Source: Chiloscyllium plagiosum (Eukaryota). Taken from it: DNA of 64,000 bases. Under the pieces are notes generated by a model that was given only the letters and a program-made list of their open reading frames with translations, ran no database searches and was not told where the DNA came from. Below, in pieces: positions 5,913 through 59,056 of the stretch. Position 1 is the stretch's first letter, and each line of letters starts with the position of its first letter. The stretch covers positions 49,112,021 to 49,176,020 of the forward strand of contig NC_057718.1 of NCBI RefSeq assembly GCF_004010195.1, read 5' to 3'. A program made the position numbers and the translations under genes.

Positions 5913-5980
5913 CTATTTTCCTGCTCCTTGAATGCTGCCTGAACTGCTGTGCTTTTCCAGCACCACTCTAATCCAGAACC
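5913..5980 (+). mobile_element. PLE tail fragment (family A)
   Basis: cctgctccttgaatgctgcctgaactgctgtgcttttccagcacc; acctacc on both sides. Confidence 0.7.
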
Positions 5981-7136
5981 TACCTACCAATAACTATCCA
6001 GTCATGTCACATTCAATGTGGTCTTGACTTTGCCAACCTCTTGTGGAGTCTTGTTAATAATAGTGTAGAATGACCCTAATTTTGAGACCAGACAGAGACT
6101 CCATTGTCTATTTAACATGTTAGAACCGCCTCAAAGAACAAGTTAGATTAATCAGACATGGTTTACCCGTCACACATTTAAATTTTACTCTGACCTACTG
6201 CAAATTATTTGGATGTTCGGTCACTGCTTGTCAGGACACATTCAAATAACACCCCAAATTCATGCTAAACTGATGGATCTGAAGTTGCCCATTTTCTCCC
6301 ACCTTTTCTAATGGAGTGACATTTTCCAAATAGAATTCTGAAATCTAAGATTTAGAAAAATGACTTGCGGACCTGAAATTTTCAGACCTGTTTTCTTTAA
6401 CATCCTGAAGTGGAACTCACCAGCTTTGAGAGATTTGTCTATCTTCAGTCACACTATTTTCTCCATTACCATTTTTCAGAAAAATTAGGCAAACTGAGCT
6501 CTAGTCCCTTACCATAGTGGAAACACCAGCAGTACAAGAGGTTCAAAATACCAACTGAATACCCACCATTCTGGATTCTTCATCATCTTCAATGAAACCC
6601 TATTTCACACTTACTGTCCTTTTATCGAGTTAACATATAAAAACACATTTTTACTAATAGATTTTGTGTTCTTTACAAGCATTTTGCTGCATTTGATACC
6701 ATTCTAGTCAGTTAATTTCCACTTGATTTGCATTGTGTAAACCTGGTCTTTAAGGACGTCACTGCCTCATATCACTTGAACAGCAGAGTTGCTTAAAATA
6801 CAATAAAAAGAGCTTTGAATAAAAATCTTCCCCCGCCCTATAGTTTTTCTTATTTAAGAGAATTGTGAATGTTGGCCATTTGAAACTCAGCGGGTCTGAC
6901 AGCATCTGTAAAGACAGAAGCAGAGTTAACACTTCAAGTCCAGTGAACCTTAATCAGAACTAAAAGTAGCTGGGCTACTTACAGCATAAGTGGCAGTTAT
7001 GCTGATGACAGTGGAGGTGGGAATGGAATGTATGCAGAAGATGAAGGAGTGAGAAATCATATGCAAACAGAGTTTGCTCATAAGCCTAGAGAGTTGGGAG
7101 GGTGCTAACGTGAAGTGCAAATGATTGAGAATGCGT

Positions 7137-7302
7137 TGGTACAATGATAGTGTCTTGACTTTTGAGCAAAGAGGCCTGGATTCCGGAATAGAGTGGCGCT
7201 GGAAAAGCACAGCAGTTCAGGCAGCATCCGAGGAGCAGGATTCAAGTCCAAACTGCTTCAGAGGGATGTAATAACATCACTGAACATGTCGATTAGAAAA
7301 AT
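7137..7302 (+). mobile_element. Short tRNA-derived SINE-like element, split by a PLE tail (7184-7237)
   Basis: B-box-like ggattcaagtcc, body gtaataacatcactgaac...gattagaaaa; ggattc duplicated around the nested insert. Confidence 0.55.
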
Positions 7303-8985: not shown

Positions 8986-10184
8986 ATATCTTGTCATCTT
9001 TGCAAAATCTTTGTGCTTCCAAAAGCAGGACATTCGGAATAGGCCACACTTTGTCTGACCTATCACCGAACCAATGGCTTCTGGATTTACTGTGACCAAT
9101 TATCTTTCCATTTGAGTTGGTCTTTTATCATTTACAAAGTATTCCCCAATGTTCCTGCTTTGATAAGTGTTGTACCACACTCATCATGTAGTTTATAATG
9201 TCTTTGCACATTTTCCAAAATGAGGCCTCTTTCTTGACGGTGGTAGTCTGTCAAATTTTTCAGATCATGCTCTGCAGCTAACCAACAGGAGGAAGCATGC
9301 TGTAGTGAGACCAGACAGGCATATTATCACTTTTCCATTGTCCTTGAAACAAACAGCACTGGCAAAAGTGCTCCACCTAGCAGCCTGGCTAAAACTGGCA
9401 GATTTTAAATCCCAACTGTTGCAGGCAGATTGGAGTGACAAACCACTTTAGGACTCAAACCCACATCAATTTGTGGGGAAGGTCAATGCTGCAACTGCTG
9501 AGCTGCTTTGCCTTTGCTACTGTAAATGCCATCAATACTGCTCACTCCTTACGTGATAAATCTACGAAATTGAAAAATACATATACTGCACTGCATTCGA
9601 ACGAAACAAGGTCAATATCATTAAGCCAATGTCTCTAATTATGCTGCATTGGAGATTATGTTTGCCATGTAATCAGGACCTTTCAGAAGTTGTTCATATC
9701 TGCAGACCATGCATGAATCATCACTAATGGTCTCTTTCCCCCCTCAATTTCTGTGCTAGTAAAGCAGTCATGCACACTAGCCGGGGTGACGTGCTACACA
9801 TACTGTATTCGTTTGCAGGATGTTGCCCTGCGCTCCTGCAATGTGACATTTCAAAACAGGCATTTTCATTCAATAAGCAGAATTGAAAAACAACACCGTT
9901 TTCACGTCAAAGTCAATCGCTTTATGCATTCCACGTGCAGGCTATGCAACTAAAAATGCTTAAAATGGATCGAGCCTTGAAACGAACCGATTTAGTTCCG
10001 CAGGCTGCGCCGTTCACAAATTACTACCAACTCCTGGCGACTTTTGCTTTTCGAAGCAAAACTGTGAAGGCAGCGAATCTCTCTGTGCCTGCTTTATACT
10101 TGACCCTAACAACAACTCTGGAAACCTCCGATCGTTAAAAAAAAAATAACTTCCTTATTTTAGAAAAAAAAATGAAAGGTCTAC

Positions 10185-11106
10185 CTTTTAAAACCAGCGG
10201 ATCCTTGCCTTCTCGTTTCAACGATTCCAGCACTATGTGGAGTGGCTGAGAGGGCAGCACCCGGTTGGGCTCAATAGTGTTCTCATCATAAACTATTATC
10301 TCCTTGGAGAATATCCTTTTATAGGAGTCCTTGCCTTCCCTGCAGGAGATGAGATCCAAGACGGTGATCTTGCCCTGCTGCAGCCTCCTCCTGCTGATCT
10401 TGTCCGAGCAGTTGATGTGGACGGCTCCCTGGATGTGGCTCTTGTTGTATTCCATGAAGGGGCGACAGTCGATGATGACCGGACCCTGGCTCTGAGACGG
10501 GGGGCCCTTGATGCCGCCGCTTTTGGTCAGTTTCTTGGCCAGCTCGGCCGGGGGGATGGTGCGGACGGCCGCAGCGGCCGGAGGGGACGGGCTCCCTCCG
10601 ACTCCGGGAGCCGGGGGGCTGGCAGAGCCGCCGTTCTCATTGCCGCTCACCATCGGGCTGCCGGCGCACGAAGGGCAGCCGGGTTTGGTGGCGGAGGCAG
10701 CAGCAGCAGCAGCAGCAGCCGCCGCTGGGGCTGGTAGAGGGTGGCTGCCGCCCACCACCGAGCCCGGGCTCGGGTCGCCCTTGTTGGGGGGGTAGGTGCT
10801 CACCGTGCAGCAACTAGCGCCGCTGCATCCGCAGGACAGGGAGCGCACCGAGCCGTTAGATGATGGCATATACGGAAAGTTGCCGCTTCGGGACGGGAGC
10901 GGAGCCGCCGCCTCCGCCAGGCTCTGAGCTTTCGGATGGCCAGCTGCCGGACTCACCGCTCCGGGACGAGAAGGAGGAGGAGGAGGAGGAGGTGGTGAAG
11001 CCGCCACGTAGGTGTGATCCAAACGGAGATGGAGCTCCTGCGGTCTGACCGGCCTCGGCAATGCCACCACCCCAACAATCCGTTCGTCTAGAGGGGATGG
11101 AGGCAT
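10185..11106 (-). CDS. DUSP10: Dual specificity phosphatase 10 (MKP-5), first coding exon (N-terminal extension + rhodanese/MAPK-binding domain); later exons outside window
   Basis: Translation MPPSPLDERIV...RPVRPQEL...YMPSSNGSVRSLSCGCSGASCCTV...GPVIIDCRPFMEYNKSHIQGAVHINCSDKISRRRLQQGKITVLDLISCREGKDSYKRIFSKEIIVYDE...LVLK(G) matches vertebrate DUSP10. Similarity ends at a phase-1 donor AAAG|GTAGAC at 10185/10184. Confidence 0.97.
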
Positions 11107-11153
11107 CAGGATGATGTTGATGAGCCCTGCTGGCGATCCGTGGAGGAAATGGA
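11107..11153 (-). other. DUSP10: 5' UTR part of DUSP10 exon 2
   Basis: Acceptor ttgatcccgtttcAG| with AG at 11155-11154 and a CTGAC branch-like motif about 20-25 nt upstream; 47 nt precede the ATG. Confidence 0.7.
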
Positions 11154-11525
11154 CTGAAACGGGATCAAATGTACTGTCAGCATCAGAGCGGAGGGAGGGG
11201 AGGGGAGAGCAATAAATTCAGAGGCACGCATTGGTTATTTCTGCCGCAAATAGAAGGGGATCGCAACTAAAAATAAACTCGAGGCACGGGCGCCTTCATT
11301 GGGCAACCTGGCGGACCGACTTTTTTTTTTAAAAAAAAGAGAAAATATAAATCAACAAACTGCTCGCTTATTCTCTGGGTGAGGTGCTTGCAATTTAAAG
11401 TCCAAGTTGAGCAGCAACTTTGTGCGGAACTGGGGTTTCACTCCGCATCCGCTGCAAGAGGCCATTGAGAAAAGAAATGTACTCACATCACAAAGTGCAG
11501 CTCCTCCCGTTCTCTTGGCACTTAC

Positions 11526-11995: not shown

Positions 11996-12286
11996 CCGGG
12001 ACCAGGTCAGCCAGTACCATCCGAGTGAGTGTGAACAGGGACAGTACCAATAGAGTGAGTGTGAACAGGGTCATAAACCTAGAGTCAGTGTGAACAGGGA
12101 CAGTACCAATAGAGTGAGTGTGAACAGGGTCAGTACACCTGGAGTCAGTGTGATCAGGGACAGTACGATCAGAGTGAGTGTGAACAGGGTCAGTACTCCT
12201 AGAGTAAGTGTAAACATGGCTAGTACACCCAGAATCAATGTGAACATGGCCAGTATCATCAGAGTGAGTGAACAGGGTCAATACAC

Positions 12287-12400
12287 TTTTGCCCGAAACG
12301 TCGATTTTGCTGCTCGTCGGATGCTGCCTGAATTGCTGTGCTCTTCCAGCACCACTGATCCAGAATCTGGTTTCCAGCATCTGCAGTCATTGTTTTTACC
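12287..12400 (+). mobile_element. PLE tail insertion (family A) with 9-bp TSD
   Basis: ttttgccCGAAACGTCgatt... flanked by tcaatacac at 12278-12286 and 12401-12409. Confidence 0.8.
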
Positions 12401-12432
12401 TCAATACACCCAGAGTCAGTGTGAATAGAGTC

Positions 12433-12554
12433 AGGAGAAAGTGAGGACTGCAGATGCTGGAGATCAAAGTTGACGGTGTCGTGCTGGAAAAGGTCAGGCA
12501 GCATCCGATGAGGATGATAAACAATGATTTGGGCCTCAGCTCTTGATCAGGAAT
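12433..12554 (-). mobile_element. PLE tail insertion (family A) with decayed hammerhead motif
   Basis: ggagaaagtgaggactgcagatgctggagatc...; reverse complement starts attcCTGATcAagagctgaggccc. Confidence 0.7.
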
Positions 12555-13499
12555 GAGCAGGGCCAGTACAACCAGAGTCAGTGTGAACAGGACCAGTACA
12601 CCCAGAGTCAGTGAACAGGGTCAGTAACCCAGAGTCAGTGAACAGGGTCAGTACACCCAGAGTCAGTGTGAACAGAGCCAGTACACCCAGAGTCAGTGTG
12701 AACAGAGCCAGTACACCCAGAGCCAGTGTTAACAGAGCCAGTATACCCACAATCAGTGTGAACAGGGCCAGTACAACCAGAGTGAAAGCAGCGAGAGTCA
12801 ATGTGAACAGCGTCAGTGGACGTGCAAGCAAAGCCAGTGAAACAAGGGCCAGTGCTGCCGGGACAGTTTTAATGAAAAGGAACAGCCAAGTCATCTCAAC
12901 CTGTTTTCCCCTTCGCACCCATTTGGTTACTCATTAAGAAATTGCACTCCTGTTTCGAAAACAGGAAGAAATCATTCAATACAGTTCCAAATGTGCAATA
13001 TTCCGCAACACTTACTAGTTGGAATTTTGAAGATAAACCAGACAGCAAAACAAAAACAAGGCAACCGGGTATTCCTCCCCAGCCTGTATTAAGTAACACC
13101 TCGAAGTTGTGCTGCCCTCAGCAGCATACGGCACAGCATATGGTGTTTGCAAGCAATTAAAAAAAAGCCCGCCAATGTTGCACTGGGAACTTTGAATTGG
13201 ACTTGACACGAATTCACTAGCAAAACCTGTAAAGTACAGCAAAAACAAAACGATGTGTCGAGCTGGAAATGATACTTTCTAAAACTTTTTTTGTTGTTTG
13301 AATTTGGTGGCAAATCTTATGGAATATGTTAAAAGAATCTGTGAATGGTTGGGTTAACGACGATGGGAACGAACACATGGCACGATGTCATTATTTAAAT
13401 CAAAGATTAAGCATGTCGTCGGAGATCATTTAACTTTTGCATGAAATCGTTTCGACATAGTTTATTCTTCCCACTACGAAAACATTTCACTAAACTGTA

Positions 13500-14844: not shown

Positions 14845-15672
14845 AAATAGCACTGTCTTATTCATCTACAATACACTGCTCCAGGCTAACTTAATACTTA
14901 TGACTTATTGATTTTTGAGACGATTTGTAGCTCAGGTTGAGATTTTGGATGTAGGTTTGCTCACTGAGCTGAAAGGTTCATTTCCAGACGTTTTATTACC
15001 TTACTAGGTAACATCTTCGGTAGATCTCACACGAAGCAATACTGAAAATTCCTGCTCTCTATTTATATGTTTGGGTTTCTTTGGGTTGGTGATCGCATGA
15101 GGTTCACTGAAGATGTTACCTAGTAAGGTTATGACTTATATTTTTTAAGTTTAATCAAGAGACATATCCCAATAAAACATATAATCAAGAAAGAGCCCAC
15201 TCTACACACGACTGCAGACTTACTGTAAGGCCACACTTAAAAGTAGCACTTATCTGTATCTATGCTGTGGCCTCTCCCAAACAGGTTCCTCCGAGATCTG
15301 TTGTGAATTTCACTGTTTGTTAGTTTTCCCAGATGCAGTCCGATGTCCAGCGATACATTAATTCAAAAAGCAAAGGCAGTAACTGCACAGGTTCACTGCT
15401 GTGTCAGGGAGCAGTATGAGTTTCTCTCTCTCTCTCTCTCTCTCTCCTGCACTGCCTGACCATTGCTGCCTTTGTCTGGTCCTCTCCCTTTTAAAAAGCT
15501 TCTGTTTTGACTTTTTTTTTCCTCCAAAGTTCCAAAACAATGCAACAGCATATAAAACAGTAATTGCTGCTCCTGGAATTCGAGGAAATCGCCTCCAACA
15601 ACTAAAATACCTCAAAAAAGGAGCAACCTGTTGCAGCCAGAAATTTTTCCCATCCTCCATCTTGGATTACCA
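14845..15672 (-). mobile_element. Inverted 5' segment of the adjacent CR1 LINE
   Basis: Directly homologous to 39130-39688, the 5' end of the minus-strand CR1. Confidence 0.8.
14909..15128 (-). mobile_element. PLE insertion (family C) with inverted hammerhead-like repeat and 11-bp TSD
   Basis: ttatgacttat at 14898-14908 and 15129-15139; gaagatgttacctagtaaggt occurs in both orientations. Confidence 0.8.
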
Positions 15673-16853
15673 ATTAGGGGGTGATGGATTCTCAGGGGAA
15701 TATAGCACCAACAGCCAAGTTCCTGGTATCAAGACTAGCTCTAATGCAACGAGAGGTACATTGGGTTCCAAGAGATCAATTGTGTTAGGGGACTCTCCAG
15801 TCCGAGGAACATAAAGACAATTCTGTGGCAGCTGCAAAAAATCAGAATGGTGTGTTGCCTCCCTGGTACCAGGATCAAGGATGGCTCAGTGAGGGTGCAG
15901 AATGTTCTCAAGGGGGAGAGGGGCCAGCAGGAGGTCATTGTCCACATTGAAACCAATGACATAGGAAGCAAAAAGGATGAGATTCTTAAGGGAGATTATA
16001 GGGAGTTAGGCAGGAATTTAAAAAGGAGGTCCTCGAGAGGAGTAATATCTGGATTACTCCTGGTGCTACAAAACAGTGAAGGCAGGAATAGGAGGATGGA
16101 GAAGATGAATGCATGGCTGAGGAGCTGGTATGGAAGAAGGATTCACTTTTTGGATCATTGGAATCTCTTCTGGGTTAAAAGTGAACTGGCACGAGAAGGA
16201 CGGATTGCACCTAAATTGGAAGGGGACTAATATACGGCAGGGAGATTTGACAGAGCTGCTCGGGAGGACTTAACAAGTAAGGTGTGTGTGTGTGTGTGTG
16301 TGTTGGGGGGGGGAGGGTGTGGGCAGGAAGATAGTGAGGAAAGAGATCAATCTAAGACTGGTACAGTTGAGAAAAGAAGTGAGTCAAACAGTCAGAGCAG
16401 GCAGGGACAAAGCAGAGAATAAGATAGGACTGATAAATTACACTGCATTTATTTCAATGCAACAGGGAAGGCAGATGAACTCAGCGCATGGTTAGGAACA
16501 GGGACTGGGAATAGCAAATACAGAAACATGGCTCAGGGATGGAAAAGACTGGCAGCTTAATGTTTCAGGATACAAATGCAACAGGAAGGACAGAAAGGGA
16601 AGCAAGAGAAGAGGGGGAGTGGTGTTTTTGATATGGGATAGTATTTCAACTGTACTGAGGGAGGATATTCACGGAAATACATCCAGAGAAGTTACTTGGA
16701 TTGAACTGAGAAATAAGAAAGGGATGATCACCTTATTGGGATTGTGTTTTATAGACCCTCTCATAGTTAGCAGGAAATTGAGAAGCAAATTTGTAAGGAG
16801 ATCTCAGTTATCTGTAAGAATAATAGGGTGGTTATGGTAGGGGACTTTAACTT

Positions 16854-16979
16854 GAAGAAAGTGAGGACTGCAGATGCTGGAGATCAGAGCTGAAAAATGT
16901 GTTGCTGGAAAAGCGCAGCAGGTCAGGCAGCATCCAAGGAGCAGGAGAATCGACGTTTCGGGCATAAGCCCTTCTTCAG
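16854..16979 (-). mobile_element. PLE tail insertion (family A) with intact hammerhead core and 13-bp TSD
   Basis: gggactttaactt (16841-16853) / gggattttaactt (16980-16992); insert absent from the paralogous CR1 at ~27352. Confidence 0.85.
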
Positions 16980-16980
16980 G
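16948..16980 (-). ncRNA. Minimal type-I hammerhead ribozyme motif
   Basis: CUGAAGA-A-GGGC(UUAU)GCCC-GAAA-C-GUC; palindromic ACGU replaces stem III. Confidence 0.7.
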
Positions 16981-19219
16981 GGATTTTAACTTTCCAAACA
17001 TAGACTGAGACTGCATAGTGTTAAGGGTTAAATGGAGAGGAATTTATTAAGTGTGTACAAGAAAATTTTCTGATTCAGTATGTGGATGTACCTACTAGAG
17101 AAGGTGCAAATCTTGACCTACTCTTGGGAAATAAGGCAGGGCAGGTGACTGGGGTGTCATTGGAGGAACTCTTAGGAGCCAGCAACCGTAATTCGATTAG
17201 TTCTAAAATAGTGAAGGAAAAGGTAGACCAGGTCTAAAAATTCAAGTTTGAAATTGGAGCAAGGCTAATTTTGACAGCATAAGGCTAGAACTTTCAAAAG
17301 CTGATTGGGGGGCAGATGTTCGCAGGTAAAGGGACGGCTGGAAAATGGGAAGCATTCAGAATTGAGATAACGAGAGCCCAGAGACAGTATATTCCTGTTA
17401 GGGTGAAAGGAAAGGCTGGTAGGTGTAGGGAATGCTGGATGACTGATGAAATTGAGAGTTTGGTGAAGAAAATGTCAGGTGCAAACAGCAGAGATCAAGT
17501 GAATCCTTAGAAGAGTATAAAGGCGGTAGGAATACATTTAAGAGGGAAATCAGGAGGGCAAAAAGGGGACATGAGATAGCTTTGGCAAATAGAATTAAGG
17601 AGAATCCAAAGGGTTTTTACAAATACATTAAGGACATAAGGGTAACTAGGGAGAGAATAGGGCCCCTCAAAGATCAGCAAGGCGGCCTTTGTGTGGAGCC
17701 ACAGGAGATGGGGGAGATACTAAATGAGTATTTTGCATCAGTATTTACTGTGGAAAAGGAGATGAAAGGTGTAGAATGTAGGGAAATAGATGGTGACATC
17801 TTGAAAAATGCCCATATTACAGAGAAGGAAGTGCTGGATGTCTTGGAACCTATAAAGGTGGATAAGTGCCCATGAGCTGATCAGGTGTACCCTGGAACTC
17901 TGTGGAAAGCTAGAGAAGTGATTGCTGGGCCCCTTGCTGAGATATTTGTATCATCGATAGTCACAGGTGAGGTGCTGGAAGACTGGAGGTTGGCTAACAT
18001 GGTGCCACTGTTTAAGAAGGGTGGTAAGAACAAGCCAGGGAACTATAGATCAGTGAGCCTGACGTCAGTGGTGGGCAAGTTGTTGCAGGGAATCCTGAGG
18101 GACAGGATGTACATGTATTTGGAAAGGCAAGGACTGATTCGGGATAGTCAACATGGCTTTATGCATGGGAAATCATGTCTCATAAATTTGATTGAGTTTT
18201 TTGAAGAAGTAACAAAGAGAATTGATGAGGGCAGAGTGGTGGATGAGATCTATGTGGACTTCAGTAAGGCGTTCGACAACTGGTTGGCTGGGAGGCTGGT
18301 TGGCAAGGTTAGATCTCTTGCAATACAAGGACAACTAGTCATTTGGATACAGAACTGGCTCAAAGGTAGAAGACAGGGGATGGTGGTGGAGGGTTGTTTT
18401 TAGACTGGAGGCCTATGACCAGTGGAGTGCCACATGGATTGTTGCTGTGTCCACTACTTTTCATCATTTATATAAATTATTTGGAAATGTGCATAAGAGG
18501 TACAGTTAGTAAGTTTGCAGATGACACCAAAATTAGAGGTGTGGTGGACAACGAAGAAGGTTACCTTGGATTACAATGGGATCTTGATCAGATGGGCCAA
18601 TGGGCTGAGGAGTGGCAGATGAGGTTTAATTGAGATAAATGCAAGGGGCTACATTTTGGGAAAGCAAATCTTAGCAGGGCTTATGCACTTAATGGTAAGG
18701 TCCTAGGGAGTGTTGCTGAACAAAGAGACTTTGGAGTGCAGGTTCATAGCTCCTTGAAAGTAGAATTGCAGGTAGATCGGGTAGTGAAGAAGGCATTTGG
18801 TATGCTTTCCTTTATTAGTCAGAGTATTGAGTACAGGAGTTGGGAGGTCATGTTGCGGCTGTACAGGATATTGATTTGGCCACTTTTGGAATATTGCATG
18901 AGATTCTGGTCTCCTTCCTGTCAGAAGGGTGTTGTGAAACTTGAAAGGGTTCAGAAAAGATTTACAAGGATGTTACCAGGGTTGGGGGATTTGAGCTTTA
19001 GGGAGAGGTTCAATAGGCTGGGGCTGTTTTCCCTGGAGCTTCAGAGGCTGAGGAGTGACCTTATAGAGGTTTATAAAATCATGAGGGGCATGGATAGGGT
19101 AAATAGACAAAGTCTTTTCCTTGAAGTGGAGGAGTCCAGAACTAGAGGTCATAGGTTTAGGGTGAGAGGGGAAAGATATAAAAGGGACCTAAGAGGCAAC
19201 TTTTTTGCGCAGAGGGTTT

Positions 19220-19537
19220 TTATTTTATTAGATTCCCTACAGTGTGGAAACAGGCACTTTGGCCCAACAAATCCACACCGACCCTCCGAAGAGTAACCCA
19301 CCCAGACCCATTTCCCTCTGACTAATGCACCTAACACTATGGGCAATTTATCATGGCCAATTCACCTGACCTGCACATCTTTGGACTGTGGGAGGAAATG
19401 GGAGCACCCGGAGGAACCCACGCAGACACAGGGAGAATGTGCAAACTCCACACAGACAGTTACCCAAGGCTGGAATCGAACCTGAGACCCTGGTGCTGTG
19501 AGGCAACAGTGCTAACCACTGAGCCACCGTGCCACCC
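19220..19537 (-). mobile_element. HE1 SINE, full length, nested in CR1
   Basis: Minus strand gggtggcacggtggctcagtggttagcac...ggttcgattcc...gtagggaatctaa. Confidence 0.92.
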
Positions 19538-26519: not shown

Positions 26520-29397
26520 TGGCATTACTTGGCAAGGCAAGAGGTGGGGTGGGGGGGGAAGTGGAGGGGGGGAGCAGAGGAGGGATCCAGGGAGATAGTG
26601 AGGAAAGAGATCGATCTGAGACTAGTACAGTTGAGAACAGAAGTGAGTCAAACAGTCAGGGCAGGCATGGTATATGGGAGAGGGATTCACATTTTTGGAT
26701 CATTGGAATCTCTTTGGGGTAGAAGTGACCTGTACAAGAAGGACGGATTGCACCTAAATTGGAAGGGGATTGGCAGGGGAATTTGCTAGAGCTGCTCGGG
26801 AGGATTTAAACTAATAGGGTTGGGGGTTGGGACAGATGGAGAAAGTGAGGAAAGAGATCAATTTGAGACTGGTACATTTGAGAACAGAAGTGAATCAAAC
26901 AGTCAGGGCATGCAGGGACAAGGTAGGGCTAATAAATTAAACTGCATTTGTTTCAATGCAAGGGGCCAAACAGGGAAGGCAGATGAACTCAGGGCATGGT
27001 TAGGAACATGGGACTGGGATATCATAGCAACTACAGAAACATGGCTCAGGGATGGGCAGGACTGGCAGCTTAATGTTCCAGGATACAAATGCTAGAAGAA
27101 GGATAGAAAGGGAGGCAAGAGAGGAGGGGGAGTGGCATCTTTGATAAGGGATAGCATTACAGCTGTGCTGAGGGAGAATATTCCTGGAAATACATCCAGG
27201 GAAACTATTTGGGTGCAACTGAGAAATAAGAAAGGGATGATCACCTTATTGGGATTGTATTATAGACCTCCCCATAGTCAGAGGAACATTGAGAAACAAA
27301 CTTGTAAGGAGATCTCAGCTATCTGTAAGAATAATATGGTGGTTATGGTAAGGGATTTTAACTTTCCAAATATCGACTGCGACTGCCATAGTGTTAAAGG
27401 TTTAGATGGAGAGGAATTTGTTAACTGAGTACAAAAAAAAGCTCTGATTCAGTATGTGGACGTACCTACTAGAGAAGGTGCAAAACTTGACCTACTCTTG
27501 GGAAATAAGGCAGGGCAGGTGACTGAGGTGTCAGTAGGGGAGCACTTTGGGGCCAGCGACCGCAATTCTATTTGTTTTAAAATAGTGATGGAAAAGGATA
27601 GACCAGATCTAAAAGTTGAAGTTCTAAATTGGAGAAAGACCAATTTTGACGGTATTAGGCAAGAACTTTCGAAAGCTGATTGGAGGCAGATGTTCACAGG
27701 TAAAGGGACGGCTGGAAAATGGAAAGCCTTCAGAAATGAGATAACGAGAATCCAGAGAAAGTATATTCCCGTTAGGGTGAAAGGAAAGGCTGGTAGGTAT
27801 ACGGAATGCTGGATGACTAAAGAAATTGAGGGTTTGGTTAAGAAAAAGAAGGAAGCATATGTCAGCTATAGTCAGGATAGATCAAGTGAATTCTGAGAAG
27901 AGCACAAAGGAAGTAGGAGTATACTTAAGAGGGAAATCAGGAGGGCAAAAAGGAGTCATGAGATAGCTTTGGCAAATAGAATTAAGGAGAATCCAAAGGG
28001 TTTTTACAAATATATTAAGGACAAAAGGGTAACTATGGAGAGAATAGGGCCCCTCAAAGATCAGCTTTGTGTGGAGCCACAGAAAATGGGGGAGATACTA
28101 AATGAATATTTTGCATCAGTATTTACTGTGNNNNNNNNNNNNNNNNNNNNNNNNNNNNNNNNNNNNNNNNNNNNNNNNNNNNNNNNNNNNNNNNNNNNNN
28201 NNNNNNNNNNNNNNNNNNNNNNNNNNNNNNNNNNNNNNNNNNNNNNNNNNNNNNNNNNNNNNNNNNNNNNNNNNNNNNNNNNNNNNNNNNNNNNNNNNNN
28301 NNNNNNNNNNNNNNNNNNNNNNNNNNNNNNNNNNNNNNNNNNNNNNNNNNNNNNNNNNNNNNNNNNNNNNNNNNNNNNNNNNNNNNNNNNNNNNNNNNNN
28401 NNNNNNNNNNNNNNNNNNNNNNNNNNNNNNNNNNNNNNNNNNNNNNNNNNNNNNNNNNNNNNNNNNNNNNNNNNNNNNNNNNNNNNNNNNNNNNNNNNNN
28501 NNNNNNNNNNNNNNNNNNNNNNNNNNNNNNNNNNNNNNNNNNNNNNNNNNNNNNNNNNNNNNNNNNNNNNNNNNNNNNNNNNNNNNNNNNNNNNNNNNNN
28601 NNNNNNNNNNNNNNNNNNNNNNNNNNNNNNNNNNNNNNNNNNNNNNNNNNNNNNNNNNNNNNNNNNNNNNNNNNNNNNNNNNNNNNNNNNNNNNNNNNNN
28701 NNNNNNNNNNNNNNNNNNNNNNNNNNNNNNNNNNNNNNNNNNNNNNNNNNNNNNNNNNNNNNNNNNNNNNNNNNNNNNNNNNNNNNNNNNNNNNNNNNNN
28801 NNNNNNNNNNNNNNNNNNNNNNNNNNNNNNNCATTGGTTAGGCCACTGTTGGAATATTGCATGCAATTCTGGTCTCCTTCCTATCGGAAAGATGTTGTGA
28901 AACTTGAAAGTGTTCAGAAAAGATTTACGAGGATGTTGCCAGGGTTGGAGGATTTGAGCTATAGGGAGAGGTGGAACAGGCTGGGGCTGTTTTCCCTGGA
29001 GCGTCGGAGGCTGAGGGGTGACCTTATAAAGTTTACAAAATTATGAGGGGCATGGATAGGATAAATAGACAAAGTCTTTTCCCTGGGGTCGGGGAGTCCA
29101 GAACTAGAGGGCATAGATTTAGGGTGAGAGGGGAAAGATATGAAAGAGACCTAAGGGGCAAATATTTCATGCAGAGAATGGTATGTGTATGGAATGAGCT
29201 GCCAGAGGATGTGGTGGAGGCTGGTACAATTGCAACATTTAAGAGGCATTTGGATGGGTGTATGAATAGGAAGGATTTGGAGGTATATGGGCCGGGTGCT
29301 GGCAGGTGGGACTAGATTGGGTTGGGATATCTGGCCGGCATGGACAGGTTGGACTGAAGGGTCTGTTTCCATGTTATACATCTCTATGACTTTATGA
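26520..29397 (+). mobile_element. HER1/CR1 LINE, 5'-truncated, spans an assembly gap (28131-28831)
   Basis: KDGLHLNWKG (ORF1 end), CICFNAR...ETWL (endonuclease), HFGASD, RT end and tail; ~26520-26668 duplicates the ORF1/ORF2 spacer. Confidence 0.93.
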
Positions 29398-40230: not shown

Positions 40231-40635
40231 AAAATACAAATGGAAAGGCTGAGGCAGCAGGGAAAATTGTCGAAGGAATCACAAATAAATTGAGCAAAGT
40301 CTGCACAGATATGTATTCCAGCAATAAAGTTTCAACTTTGATCTCCAGCATCTGCAGACCTCACTTTCTCCTCAAACATGTATAAGACAATCCCTCAATA
40401 GAGAAACACACCTACTAAAGGCCTGGAAAGTAGTCCAGTTCAAGGACTAATGCACTAAAACTATTATTCCAATAGCAAAACATTCACTGAGGCCAGAAGC
40501 AGTAGCAGGCATGTGTGAAAAAGCAGAACACCAAATTTTGTTTTGACAAAACCGCTGAACTATTGCCAGAGTTGAGCGGTAGAGAGCTAGTCAAGTACAA
40601 ACCTTCAAATTATCAATCAAAGTCAGCCCATTTTG

Positions 40636-42949: not shown

Positions 42950-43035
42950 AAAATCAAAAGAACTGCGGATACAGGAAATCAGAAACAAAAACAGAAATTG
43001 CTGGAAAAACGGAGCAACTCAGTAAGGATGTATAA
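42950..43035 (-). mobile_element. PLE tail fragment (family B)
   Basis: gaaatcagaaacaaaaacagaaattgctggaaaaac. Confidence 0.6.
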
Positions 43036-43116
43036 AGGGAAACGAAATGTTGATGGAAGTAACAAAACTGGATTAGCTCCAAAAGATGAGCAGAACTCAG
43101 CTTGGATATGTCTTTG

Positions 43117-43200
43117 ATGAAGAGCTTTTGCTGAAATGTCAATTCTCCTGCTCTTCGGATGCTGCCTGACCTGCTGTGCTTTTCCAGCACACACTCTCGA
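43117..43200 (+). mobile_element. PLE tail insertion (family A), decayed hammerhead motif, 16-bp TSD
   Basis: cttggatatgtctttg (43101-43116) / cttggatttgtctttg (43201-43216). Confidence 0.8.
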
Positions 43201-45849: not shown

Positions 45850-46190
45850 TACTCTTACTTATATTTTCATATCATGTCGTACTGCATCAACCACAATTAA
45901 AATCTCTCGATTCTGGGTGGGGCATCCATGACCTCCTTTATGTTCAGTAAGGTTACTAATGCCTTATGCTCAGTTTCATCCTTAACCAATAGGCCTAAGA
46001 TGCAGTCAGAACACTTTTTGCACACCCAAGATGCCGCAAACACTTCTGCCTCACAAGCGTCATATTGTTGTTCTATATCACTGAGAGCTATTGAGACATA
46101 ATAGATCAGCCATCTGATCCCATCATACTGAGAATGGGATGAGACTGCTTCTAGACCAGTGGATGGTACATCTGCTACACTTAGCATATC
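45850..46190 (-). mobile_element. Ty3/Gypsy pol remnant (RNase H)
   Basis: ADVPSTGLEAV...YYVSIALSDIEQQY...EAEVFAASWVCKKCSDCILG...ETEHKALV...PPRIERF resembles DASxxGLGAV...EKExLA...ETDHKPL...PPRIQRF. Confidence 0.85.
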
Positions 46191-46299
46191 TTTAATTTAA
46201 GCAAATAATTGTGGTTGTTTCTCAATCCAACATCACACCTGATCTTGCTAACCAACCCCACTAAACTAACCAAAACCCACAATGCCATGTGTAACTAAC

Positions 46300-47950
46300 C
46301 CTAACCCAATCCTACTTTCATGTTCGATTCCTCTCATCATAAAGGTAAGCGCCCCATTAGCCTTCCTGTTGAAAACTGATGCAAAGTATCTATTCAGATC
46401 CTCGTTCTTTTTGTTCCCAATTGCTACTTCCCCAGTCTCATTTTCCAACAGTCAACTTTTGCCAGTCTCTTACCTTTTATATATCTAAAAAACTTTTTCA
46501 ATCTTCTTTTATATTACTAGCTACCTTACCCTCATACTTCATCTTCTCCACGCTTACTGCCTTTCAGTTATCATCTGCTGGTTTTAAAGTCTTCCCAATC
46601 CTCTAGGTTCCCACTAATCATCATCACATTGTGTGCTTTTTTTAATGCTGTCCTTAATTTTCCTGGTCAGCCATGGTTGCCTCATTCTCCCTTTAGTATG
46701 TTTCTTCTTCCTTGGGATGAATTTCTGCCTTATCTTCTAAATTACCCCTAAAATCCCCTGCCATTGTCGGTGCACCATCTTCCCTGCTAGGCCCCCTTTC
46801 TAATCAAGCTGGCTAGCTCCTCCCTCATGTCTTTGTAATTACCCTTACTCAATTTTTAAATCTGATTCCAGCTTCTCCCTTTCAAACTGCAAGACGAATT
46901 CTATCATATAATGGTCACTGCCGTTGAGGGATTCCTTTATCTTAAGCTTCCCAATCAAGTCTGGTCCCAGCATGATACAAGTCGAGCCCAGCCCATCGGA
47001 ACAATCTCTCCTTCTCCAGAACTGGTGCCAATGTCCAAATGATTAAAAGTTGAAGAGTGAGGTGTTGGAAAAACACAGCCGGTCAGGCAGCATCCGAGGA
47101 GCTGGAGAATCGATATTTTGAGTATAAGGAATGAGGCTCCAAATAATTCAAGCCCATTTCTCCTGAATCAATCTTACAGCCACAAGTTTACCCCTTTAAT
47201 CTTGTTAACCCTGTACCAATTATCTCATGGCTCAGGTTCACATCCAAAGATTATTACCTTTATGGTTCTGCTTTTTAATTTAGTCCTTAGCTGCTCACAT
47301 TTCCTCAGCAGAACCTCTTTCCTCGTTCTGCCTGTATTGTGGGTATCTACCTGGACTATGACAATTAATTCTTTCCCTAGCCATTCCAAGTTCTTCTGCA
47401 GTCCAGGTGTGGGCTGAACCTGGGTACCAGAAAGACAACACAACCTTTGGGACTCTCGATCTTGGCCATAAAGAACAGTGTCTATTCCCCAACTTTACTA
47501 CTCCTGATTACAACTACATTTCTCTTATTTTCCCCTTTTCTGGAATTGCTCCCTGTACCACAGTGCTTTGGTCAGTTTGCTCACCGTCCCTATAGCTCCT
47601 TCTCTCATCCACATAGGGAGCAAGAATTTCAAACCTGTTAGACAAGCTGAAAGTCTGAGGCTCCTTTAGCACTACCTGCTAGATCACTCTACCTGTCTCG
47701 CTCATAGTCACACCCTCCTGTCCCAGCCCACTGATCAAATTTGAGGTAGTTAATCTAAGGGAGGTGACACCTCCTGAAATGCAGTGTCCAGTTAACTCTG
47801 CCCCTCCCTGATGTGTTGCAGTGTTCAAAGAGCATCATCTCTGAGTCTGAGTTCCTCAAGCAAGCAATACTTGCTCCAGATGTGGCCATTATGAACCACA
47901 ATGGGGTCCACCAGCACCCACGTCATACAGGTACAACACATTGCCTGGCC
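46300..47950 (-). mobile_element. Old CR1 LINE, internally deleted (ORF1 esterase + part of ORF2)
   Basis: CCLSGT...VQVDTHNTGRTRKEVL...LKSRTIKVII; NRYFASVF. Confidence 0.8.
47045..47137 (-). mobile_element. PLE tail insertion (family A) with 11-bp TSD
   Basis: tccaaatgatt (47034-47044) / tccaaataatt (47138-47148). Confidence 0.75.
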
Positions 47951-52850: not shown

Positions 52851-54590
52851 ATTACTGGTACTGAGTCCAGAAGTGCCTCTCACATCAGAAAATTATCACA
52901 TGCCGCACAAAGAAACTCCATAGTGTAAGAGGGATATCTTGAGGTAGTAGCCCCAACAGACATAAATGTTGTACGAGGAACAATAATTTTAACAGAGTAG
53001 ACAGTGAAATAAAGACTACAAATCAATCCCAATCGCAAAGATTGAGTCACTGCCAGTAAACTTGAAGATAAACTAATAAGAATTGAAACAATGTTTGATA
53101 ATTGGAAAAAGTTTAGTTTATTCAGAGATAGCACATTAGGGTCAATCAGCCACATCACATAATGGATTTATATTGAAAAAACATGGGACTTATAAGGCTA
53201 AAGTAAAACTAGTTGCCTAGTTTTAGAGTATGACTAAATGTCACAGGTGCTAGACAGGAATCTTGTTGCTTGAAAAGTAAACACATAATTCTTCTTAACT
53301 ATTTTGGCCACGTGCTCGTGGGAGTGTAGGCTATTCAACACTAAAGCAGCATTATTGCAGGATAATACTTTACCAAGAGCAGTGTTTCTGAAATCATCCA
53401 AACAGCAACATATGCAGAAGGAAAGCTAATTTTACTTGTCAAAAATGTCTATGACCCATACGATATTTCCAGCATATGCTATTTTCCAATCAGGTTTTTG
53501 TTTTCTGAAAATAGGTTGTGTTCAAGAGCAGACCTACAATATATTTTGATGTAAAGGAAAGGATTGATCAAAGGAACTGTTTGGGCACGCTGATGACAAT
53601 TTATTCAAAGGAGACCTCCAAAGCTCACCAGAGGAAATGGGAGCAGGTGACCAGGGAGGCCAAATCCTGAACTCTGGCCTTGAGAATCTGGCAGCAATGT
53701 CACATTTGTAATGGCATTACAATGTATGGTCAAAATACATCTTCAAATTACATCTCCTGCCCTCCAGACCGTGAACATCTCCTATTGCTTCATGTACAAC
53801 ATCCTTGTCATTCAATCAAAGCAATCCTGGGGATTTAGGACTCAGTTCTATCGTTCAGACATTTCTCCCCAGTATACATTCCAATAACTCACATGCAAAA
53901 TTGGCTGATTCCACATACACCCAACTATTCAGTAATGGCAGGCACATCACCCAAATACAATGTGATATTCATTGATTTCTTCCGCTTCTCTTGCTTATCA
54001 AAATAGTCCATTACAGTAGAGTATAACGAGTGGAGGTCAGGGATGCCTGCACCTCCTGAACGACAGGAAGAGATGGTTCTCCACACAGCAAGACAATGGA
54101 GACAGCAGATTAGGTAACGTTTGGGATCCTGGCCTGTCCACTTCTTTTTGGCTGACCGGCCGCATCCTTTTTTAAAATTTTTTCTTCTTTAAAATTATTG
54201 TTATTTCATAATTTCACCTTTTGTGTCAAATTCATCCTTTCTTCTTCCTGCAGCTGAAGTGTGGCAGTTACAGTTGGACAGTCCCAAGTCCTTGGCAATT
54301 TCGATGGCCCCTGGTCCTCAGCGCTTCCCGTAGGTTCTGGTTCTTGGCAGTTTCAACGTGTCCGCAGTGCACAGTGCTTTTGGCAGGCCCCCGGTCCTTA
54401 GTGGTTTTGACAGGGCCCAGTCCTAGGCAGTTTCGACAGACCCATGGTTCTTGAGAGTTTCGAGAGGCCCGCCCCATTCTTGACAGTTGGCAAGGCCTCT
54501 GGTCCTCGGAAGTGACTGGTTTGTGAAACCAAGAGGCTGTGGAATGAACAAAAAATGATATTTGGCTTAACTTTGCCTTTTTTAAATATG

Positions 54591-54723
54591 ATTTGGAGAT
54601 GCCGGTGTTGGACTGGGGTGTACAAAGTTAAAAATCACACAACACCAGGTTATAGTCCAACAGGTTGAATTGGAAGCACACTAGCTTTCGGAGCAACACT
54701 CCTTCATCAGGTGATAGTCAGAC
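54591..54723 (-). mobile_element. PLE tail insertion (family D) with intact hammerhead core and 12-bp TSD
   Basis: tttttaaatatg at 54579-54590 and 54724-54735. Confidence 0.85.
54679..54713 (-). ncRNA. Minimal type-I hammerhead ribozyme motif
   Basis: CAC-CUGAUGA-A-GGAGU(GUU)GCUCC-GAAA-G-CUA-GUG: stem I CAC/GUG, stem II, palindromic AGCU in place of stem III. Confidence 0.75.
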
Positions 54724-58984: not shown

Positions 58985-59056
58985 TGGCAGAAGATGGTTT
59001 CTATCCATTGACCTCTGGGTTATGGGCCCAGCACGCTCCCACAGCACCACACTGCT
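58985..59056 (-). pseudogene. tRNA-iMet(CAT) pseudogene
   Basis: Minus strand AGCAGtGTGGtGCtGtGGgAGCGTGCTGGGCCCATAACCCAGAGGTCaATGGATaGAAACCATCtTCTGCcA aligns without gaps over 72 nt to vertebrate initiator tRNA-Met (recalled sequence) with ~9 substitutions; B box damaged. Confidence 0.9.

Follow-up and report, generated by a model that had tools for sequence, protein, structure and literature searches.

We describe a 126-bp insert headed by a hammerhead ribozyme motif that interrupts a CR1-type LINE in a 64,000-nt stretch of the Chiloscyllium plagiosum genome, referred to here as the window. The insert (16854-16979, minus strand) is likely an inert terminal module of a Penelope-like element (PLE), made up of a pLTR end and a tail, and was likely generated by TPRT of an uncut linear RNA. 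Within this reading, the origin from a PLE by way of an uncut linear RNA is the part held with most confidence and is considered highly probable. A single insert of this kind is ordinary, being a dead copy within another dead retroelement. At the level of the family, the copies add evidence from a genome to what was found in vitro, namely that uncleaved RNA is copied by PLEs, and this support for an uncut template bears on what the hammerheads of PLEs are for.

The host LINE (15143..19217, plus strand) comprises ORF1, an endonuclease region and RVT_1, the last at 17876-18630. Its ORF1 has an OSK/SGNH-like match at 15745 that falls below the Pfam cut-off, and an Exo_endo_phos match, likewise below cut-off, occurs in a paralogous LINE at 26790. 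The host thus displays the APE endonuclease, reverse transcriptase and esterase-like ORF1 of a CR1-clade LINE. The label CR1 is that of an earlier note on this DNA and agrees with what we take to be the make-up of such elements. The insert sits in the codons for a DFNFP stretch in the host endonuclease region. Sequence comparison identified a target-site duplication around it, with a left copy at 16840..16853 and a right copy at 16979..16992 (both plus strand) that are identical at 13 of 14 positions. The length of the duplication is 12-15 bp, and it extends to 15 bp because the final target bases double as the first bases of the element, positions 16978-16980 being common to both as a 3-nt microhomology. 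A 13-bp duplication had been proposed, which lies within this range, although the single mismatch had gone unmentioned. The C at 16845 in the left copy is private, with T found in about 95-98% of contig depth.

An empty site was located in the paralogous LINE at 27352..27364 (plus strand) from BLAST matches of the host LINE to its paralogue. The left flank (16129-16853) matches 26673-27364 at 80.9%, the right flank (16980-17752) matches 27352-28130 at 86.6%, and the two matches overlap by 13 bp on the paralogue. This overlap was used to set the boundary of the empty site, as a two-sequence MAFFT alignment put the gap in the wrong place. Four public runs were also aligned to 16790-17050 at 80% likeness. 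Two of these, X1 and X5, are DNA runs with 114,010 and 120,013 contigs, respectively, CR1 flank matches included; X15 comprises 13,858 contigs from a run guessed to be RNA, and X21 comprises 3905 raw polyA reads. In the contigs, the empty form appears as a 140-nt skip (126 + 14) from 16839 to 16980, seen in 3 contigs of X1 and 6 of X5, and no contig spanning the filled site is among those listed. The duplication, the empty paralogue at 27352 and the empty-form contigs agree in supporting the proposal that the insert arose by a separate insertion.

Several unrelated features were observed elsewhere in the window. A GC-rich exon with a rhodanese domain lies at 10138-11217 (minus strand) and presumably belongs to a MAP kinase phosphatase of the DUSP10 type. 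An RNase H fragment of an LTR-type retroelement is located at 45900-46196 (minus strand). Repeats of about 300 bp with a SINE-like appearance, members of an abundant family, occur at 19221, 23845, 40632, 41568, 56794 and 58680, and a weak tRNA match (30 bits) at 58985-59056 adjoins one of them.

The minimal hammerhead motif occupies 16952..16979 on the minus strand. It opens with the core CUGAAGA (16979-16973, with C3 at 16979) and an extra A at 16972, continues with a 4-bp stem II of GGGC/GCCC (16971-16968 and 16963-16960) closed by a UUAU loop, and ends with GAAA (16959-16956) and C15.2-G16.2-U16.1-C17 (16955-16952), which together include the ACGU palindrome. This layout confirms the motif as it had been read from the minus strand and agrees with the published minimal hammerhead ribozyme (min-HHR) of PLEs, in which CUGANGAH is followed by GAAAN, a palindrome and NUH, an extra base stands between positions 9 and 10.1 (here A16972), a G10.1-C11.1 pair opens stem II (here G16971-C16960) and positions 15.2-16.2 are palindromic. 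A strict hammerhead descriptor, written by us for this analysis, found two sites in the window, one in the insert and one at 54710, and none in 200 dinucleotide shuffles of the window. Rfam searches returned no hammerhead model for the motif, either at the gathering threshold or at E values up to 10. It differs from a canonical hammerhead with helix III and a loop 1-loop 2 contact, the helix III loop being absent.

Cleavage is predicted between 16952 and 16951. As had been stated before, the insert begins at the ribozyme core, with its start at C3 upstream of this site, and 28 nt upstream of the predicted cut are kept in this copy. A single base pair of helix I is left, where the min-HHR has 2 bp or more; letters found upstream of the core in other members of the family would extend helix I to 2 bp and, past a U-U mismatch, one more pair. 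Owing to this loss of helix I, the 16854-16979 copy is probably inert as a ribozyme, judging by its sequence. Folded as a single strand, the insert gives nothing unusual (z between -1.0 and 0.8), and the active fold does not arise, which is what one would expect of a minimal motif. The palindrome would permit a dimer with four intermolecular pairs, at -18.9 kcal/mol vs -24.1 for the best two-copy fold. CpG positions of the core vary in 9-17% of contig depth, compared to 9-10% and 4-6% at non-core sites. The core variation resembles that of the first of these non-core sites, which fits neutral decay of the copies.

The insert is one of eight family copies in the window, a density of 8 in 62.6 kb, and the other seven were matched at E 3e-13 or better. 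Four of the eight start at the core or no further than about 10 nt upstream of it. Besides the insert, these are a short form at 43115..43194 (plus strand), which starts at the core, has an alternative stem II of GAGC/GCU and carries its own 16-bp duplication with one mismatch, overlapping the start of the core; a long form at 12433..12556 (minus strand), which starts about 6 nt upstream of a decayed core and is embedded in a 30-bp minisatellite; and a short form at 47048..47143 (minus strand), which starts about 8-10 nt upstream of the core position, has the core deleted and shows a candidate duplication of 11 bp. One copy, a long form of a sister subfamily at 12286..12399 (plus strand) with a 9-bp duplication, starts inside stem/loop II. 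Two short forms start 1-5 nt past the cut site: 5915..5981 (plus strand) starts 1 nt downstream of it and has a candidate duplication of 7 bp, and 7181..7243 (minus strand) starts about 2-5 nt downstream. The last copy, at 40316..40372 (plus strand), starts far downstream and consists of the 3' 57 nt only, with the tail.

The tail, of about 35 nt, corresponds to 16854..16890 (minus strand) in the insert and was defined from the window copies together with the public contigs. It is optional, being present in four of the eight window copies and absent from the other four. Target-site duplications are clear in three of the eight and weak or lacking in five, and their lengths vary (12-15 bp at the insert, 16 bp at 43115, 9 bp at 12286) as they do in EN+ PLEs. 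No tandem array was found at 16854-16979 or among the window copies. Two side observations concern the surroundings of these copies. A 30/60-bp minisatellite at 12012-12785 contains a tail-to-tail pair of family copies (12286, plus strand, and 12550, minus strand), and a 3' piece of a less closely related sister family, with 72% identity, lies at 42959-43022 (minus strand), head to head with the copy at 43115 and about 90 nt from it.

A second hammerhead family is represented in the window by a copy at 54589..54723 (minus strand), whose start lies up to 13 nt upstream of the core. In a comparison with the insert, the best local match had an E value of 0.26 and covered the core only. The two families therefore share the core alone, in keeping with the earlier description of the insert family as unrelated in sequence to that at 54.7 kb. 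A 12-nt likeness near the 3' ends of both families was considered and rejected as not significant (E 0.9). A duplication of about 13 bp flanks the 54589-54723 copy, which follows the same pattern of starting at the ribozyme.

The repeat represented by the insert is very abundant, and the public runs reveal where its copies end. The counts of ends and joints given here rest on the 24 of 1068 loose-end rows and the 15 of 228 joints that were listed, and counts for X1 are lower bounds. On the 5' side, loose ends at 16980 were found in at least 1579 contigs of X1, 1611 of X5, 273 of X15 and 653 raw reads of X21. The first 6-7 loose letters at this position are identical across the four runs, after which agreement drops to 0.38-0.48; over 30 letters it is 0.38 in the DNA runs vs 0.33 for pure flank. 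The sequence upstream of the core is absent from the reference and longer copies are visible only through this agreement value, by which a shared 30-nt upstream extension would occur in at most about 9-16% of the 16980 contigs, a rough figure since contigs collapse shared sequence. Loose ends at 16974 (at least 771 in X1, 945 in X5, 111 in X15 and 328 in X21) represent a subfamily with U at N7, and their letters run back to the same start; U at N7 accounts for 22-26% of contig depth. At 16979, at least 320 contigs of X1 end in random flank (0.33). Among the rows listed, the 5' ends of the family thus accumulate within about 0-7 nt upstream of the core and not at the cut site, for which no row is present among the 24 of 1068 listed. 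By starting at C3, the insert falls about 5 nt short of the usual family start, a trim specific to this copy. Copy ends are accordingly non-random with respect to the ribozyme, the listed 5' ends clustering upstream of its core.

On the 3' side, one class of ends is found at 16856 (at least 1148 contigs of X1 and 844 of X5) and a second in the 16898-16899 rows (at least 600 of X1; 820 and 351 of X5), which gives two 3'-end forms about 35 nt apart. Among the rows listed, those at 16894-16901 represent short forms and subfamilies, and those at 16889 mark mid-element differences between subfamilies. Of the 15 joints listed (of 228), five lead onto 16978-16980 from the opposite strand, with a head-to-head, inverted and variably truncated partner. 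The inverted partner typical of EN+ PLEs is thereby seen at the level of the family, away from the 16854-16979 locus. None of the 15 of 228 joints listed is a full head-to-tail one that would link the long 3' end with the 5' start. One contig of X15 (depth 141) goes back from 16980 to 16896, which is a head-to-tail joint of the short form with a unit of about 85-90 nt and would fit either a small circle or a tandem in the genome. Other joints, whose kind is not given, include some at 16949, 16951 and 16952. The 3905 raw polyA reads of X21, a library poor for circles, cover both strands without a pile-up of starts or ends, the cut site included, and their depth passes smoothly across it (2455 in the 16943-16951 bin vs 2198 in 16952-16960).

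The search for a parent element was carried out in several ways. No GIY-YIG or PLE-type protein match was obtained among 141 of the 205 window ORFs of at least 70 aa. Protein searches with the frame of the insert returned exonised copies, a short unnamed protein with part of the repeat and a chance match, with no PLE protein among them, and pattern scans of viral contigs, metagenome contigs and prokaryotic genomes gave no match. As no parent was found, membership among PLEs rests on architecture: a motif that conforms to the published min-HHR consensus (CUGANGAH, G10.1-C11.1, the extra base and the palindromic 15.2-16.2 positions), a long 3' end situated 116-118 nt from the point where stem II begins, and an optional tail within the 30-40 bp known from EN+ PLEs, evident both in the window copies and in the two 3'-end classes. 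Since these features match the PLE reaction and the behaviour of PAc, the lizard PLE discussed below, the insert is read as a PLE product made on uncut linear RNA.

Several observations concern coding potential. An open frame of 41 codons (16855-16977, minus strand) spans the insert, with an ATG in loop II, and by analogy with PAc the parent ORF could begin with this frame. Two annotated FUBP3-like isoforms of Chiloscyllium plagiosum end in a translated short-form family copy that is 71% identical, and the family therefore occurs in bamboo sharks. The peptide LYLIA flanks this copy on both sides and suggests a duplication of about 15 bp; the isoform ends possibly represent exonisation or an annotation artefact.

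We propose the following sequence of events for the insert. A PLE endonuclease would have nicked the LINE with a stagger of 12-15 nt, and the PLE reverse transcriptase would then have begun at an internal position of the RNA, 116-118 nt downstream of where stem II starts. The uncleaved ribozyme would have been copied through, as cutting would need a dimer or a protein. Synthesis would have run off where the template ended, about 5-7 nt upstream of the core and most likely at the transcript start, and the cDNA end would have been joined to the target over the 3-nt microhomology, a step that would also have removed the 5' strand of helix I. Run-off at such a template end is our preferred explanation for the clustered 5' ends, tentative as it is. 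The pyrimidine-A motif at the 5' boundary of the family presumably fits the initiator consensus. A more specific version, which we consider possible but somewhat doubtful, is that the transcript of a shark PLE starts 5-7 nt upstream of the hammerhead and that, because reverse transcription begins internally, mostly only the first 90-130 nt of the mRNA are copied, yielding SINE-like head copies of fixed length. If this were true, an autonomous element would turn out fixed-length head copies on the order of 10^5 per genome without needing a separate SINE master, and the role of the ribozyme would be to mark the start of the template instead of cutting it. The two of eight window copies that start 1-5 nt past the cut, together with the joints at 16951, 16952 and 16949, indicate that a minor route using cleaved template may operate alongside the main uncut route.

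The same PLE origin could also produce a fixed 5' end through a truncation hot spot on a long mRNA, with the enzyme stopping or switching strand once it has passed the 3' pLTR's ribozyme, folded or bound by protein. A truncated 5' end is usual for PLE copies (PMC8557442, PMC8969392), and the faint shared letters beyond 7 nt, along with the copy at 47143 that reaches 8-10 nt upstream, indicate that longer templates exist. Yet stops induced by structure would be expected 3' of the fold, near 16950, and not past the whole core, and raw-read depth shows no step there (2455 for 16943-16951 vs 2198 for 16952-16960). We regard a hot spot as unlikely. Still less probable is a self-standing, SINE-like family in which PLE protein acts in trans to mobilise a few independently transcribed short masters. 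The fixed ends, the subfamily variants (U at N7; the GAGC/GCU stem II) and the density of 8 in 62.6 kb are what such a family might show, and rotifer pLTRs are sufficient in cis for mobilisation (PMC3846280). Against it, Rfam found no tRNA or other RNA-gene head, the optional tail and the inverted partners belong to the PLE reaction itself, and the RNA reads cover both strands without piled-up ends, as for read-through.

The earlier note had taken the template to be an uncleaved, tandem or circular RNA, that is, one of retrozyme type processed by the hammerhead, and had not recognised an origin from a PLE. The uncleaved state is upheld by the 28 nt present upstream of the cut and by the listed 5' ends upstream of the core; the tandem or circular state is not, and we consider it very improbable. 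A dimer with four intermolecular pairs is permitted by the palindrome, one X15 contig goes back from 16980 to 16896, circles have been proposed for PLEs (PMC4209133), and tandem retrozymes are reported from one chondrichthyan genome (bioRxiv 10.64898/2026.07.22.740005). If the ribozyme had made a monomer or circle, however, copies would be expected to start at 16951, to be circularly permuted, or to carry the element's own 3' end upstream of the core, and the 5' flanks are instead heterogeneous and differ from that 3' end, which argues against such a template. The site and the window copies lack a tandem array, the 15 joints listed of 228 lack a full head-to-tail joint, and the 3905 polyA reads, from a library poor for circles, lack a pile-up of ends at the cut site. 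Moreover, retrozymes are described as carrying canonical hammerheads in tandem units of 150-450 bp (PMC7229834). The two window copies that start just past the cut site temper the case against circles. Run-off on an uncut linear PLE transcript remains the reading that we prefer.

The known systems closest to the family are PLEs and retrozymes. Min-HHRs in the pLTRs of metazoan PLEs are reported to work poorly, as dimers, and most of these motifs are single and have been ascribed to truncated PLEs (Cervera and De la Pena 2014, PMC4209133). The core, the extra base between 9 and 10.1, the G10.1-C11.1 pair, and the palindromic 15.2-16.2 positions without loop 3 are shared with our motif, whereas stem II has 4 bp in the insert compared to 7-8 bp in Schistosoma motifs, and the short helix I of the published motif is missing from the 16854-16979 copy (PMC4209133). 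The file searched from the supplement of that paper contains no shark entry. In the papers located, figures and supplements aside, the shark family is not described and a clustered 5' boundary is not stated. Retrozymes have been associated with circular RNA and with hammerheads of the canonical type (Cervera and De la Pena 2020, PMC7229834). Non-LTR retrozymes resemble the family in their type I hammerhead, non-coding nature, relationship to PLE pLTRs and dispersed monomers (PMC7229834; bioRxiv 10.64898/2026.07.22.740005). They differ in occurring as tandem units, each with a complete hammerhead; the insert stands alone and has its minimal motif right at the front, in a window without arrays (PMC7229834).

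EN+ PLEs are described with an optional tail of 30-40 bp, an adjacent inverted and 5'-truncated copy, partial tandems and solo pLTRs (Craig et al. 2021, PMC8557442; PMC3846280), and PLE insertions with joins over microhomology and with duplications 8-10 bp long (Arkhipova et al. 2013, PMC3846280). The tail, inverted partners, duplications and microhomology joins are all common to the shark family, while EN+ PLE copies are variably truncated and those of the shark family have many ends that cluster within a few bases and occur at far higher density (PMC8557442, PMC3846280). In Drosophila Penelope, an intron separates helix I from the transcript start, which lies about 120 nt upstream (PMC2377424, PMC4209133), so that a start at the edge of the ribozyme would not be general. 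A further likeness is to PAc, a Poseidon element of Anolis carolinensis, for which the use of uncleaved template is already known (Frangieh et al. 2024, PMC11167929). Unprocessed RNA is its dominant template, no RNA reads end at the cut, and two internal start sites of reverse transcription give an optional tail, with starts located 111-118 nt into an ORF beginning at stem II (PMC11167929). The parent ORF of the insert was not found, so that the likeness is one of architecture, and a fixed 5' end at the ribozyme edge is absent from the PAc text (PMC11167929). Shared by both elements are an uncleaved template, two 3' ends and a matching distance from the start of stem II, 111-118 nt in PAc and 116-118 nt in the insert (PMC11167929).
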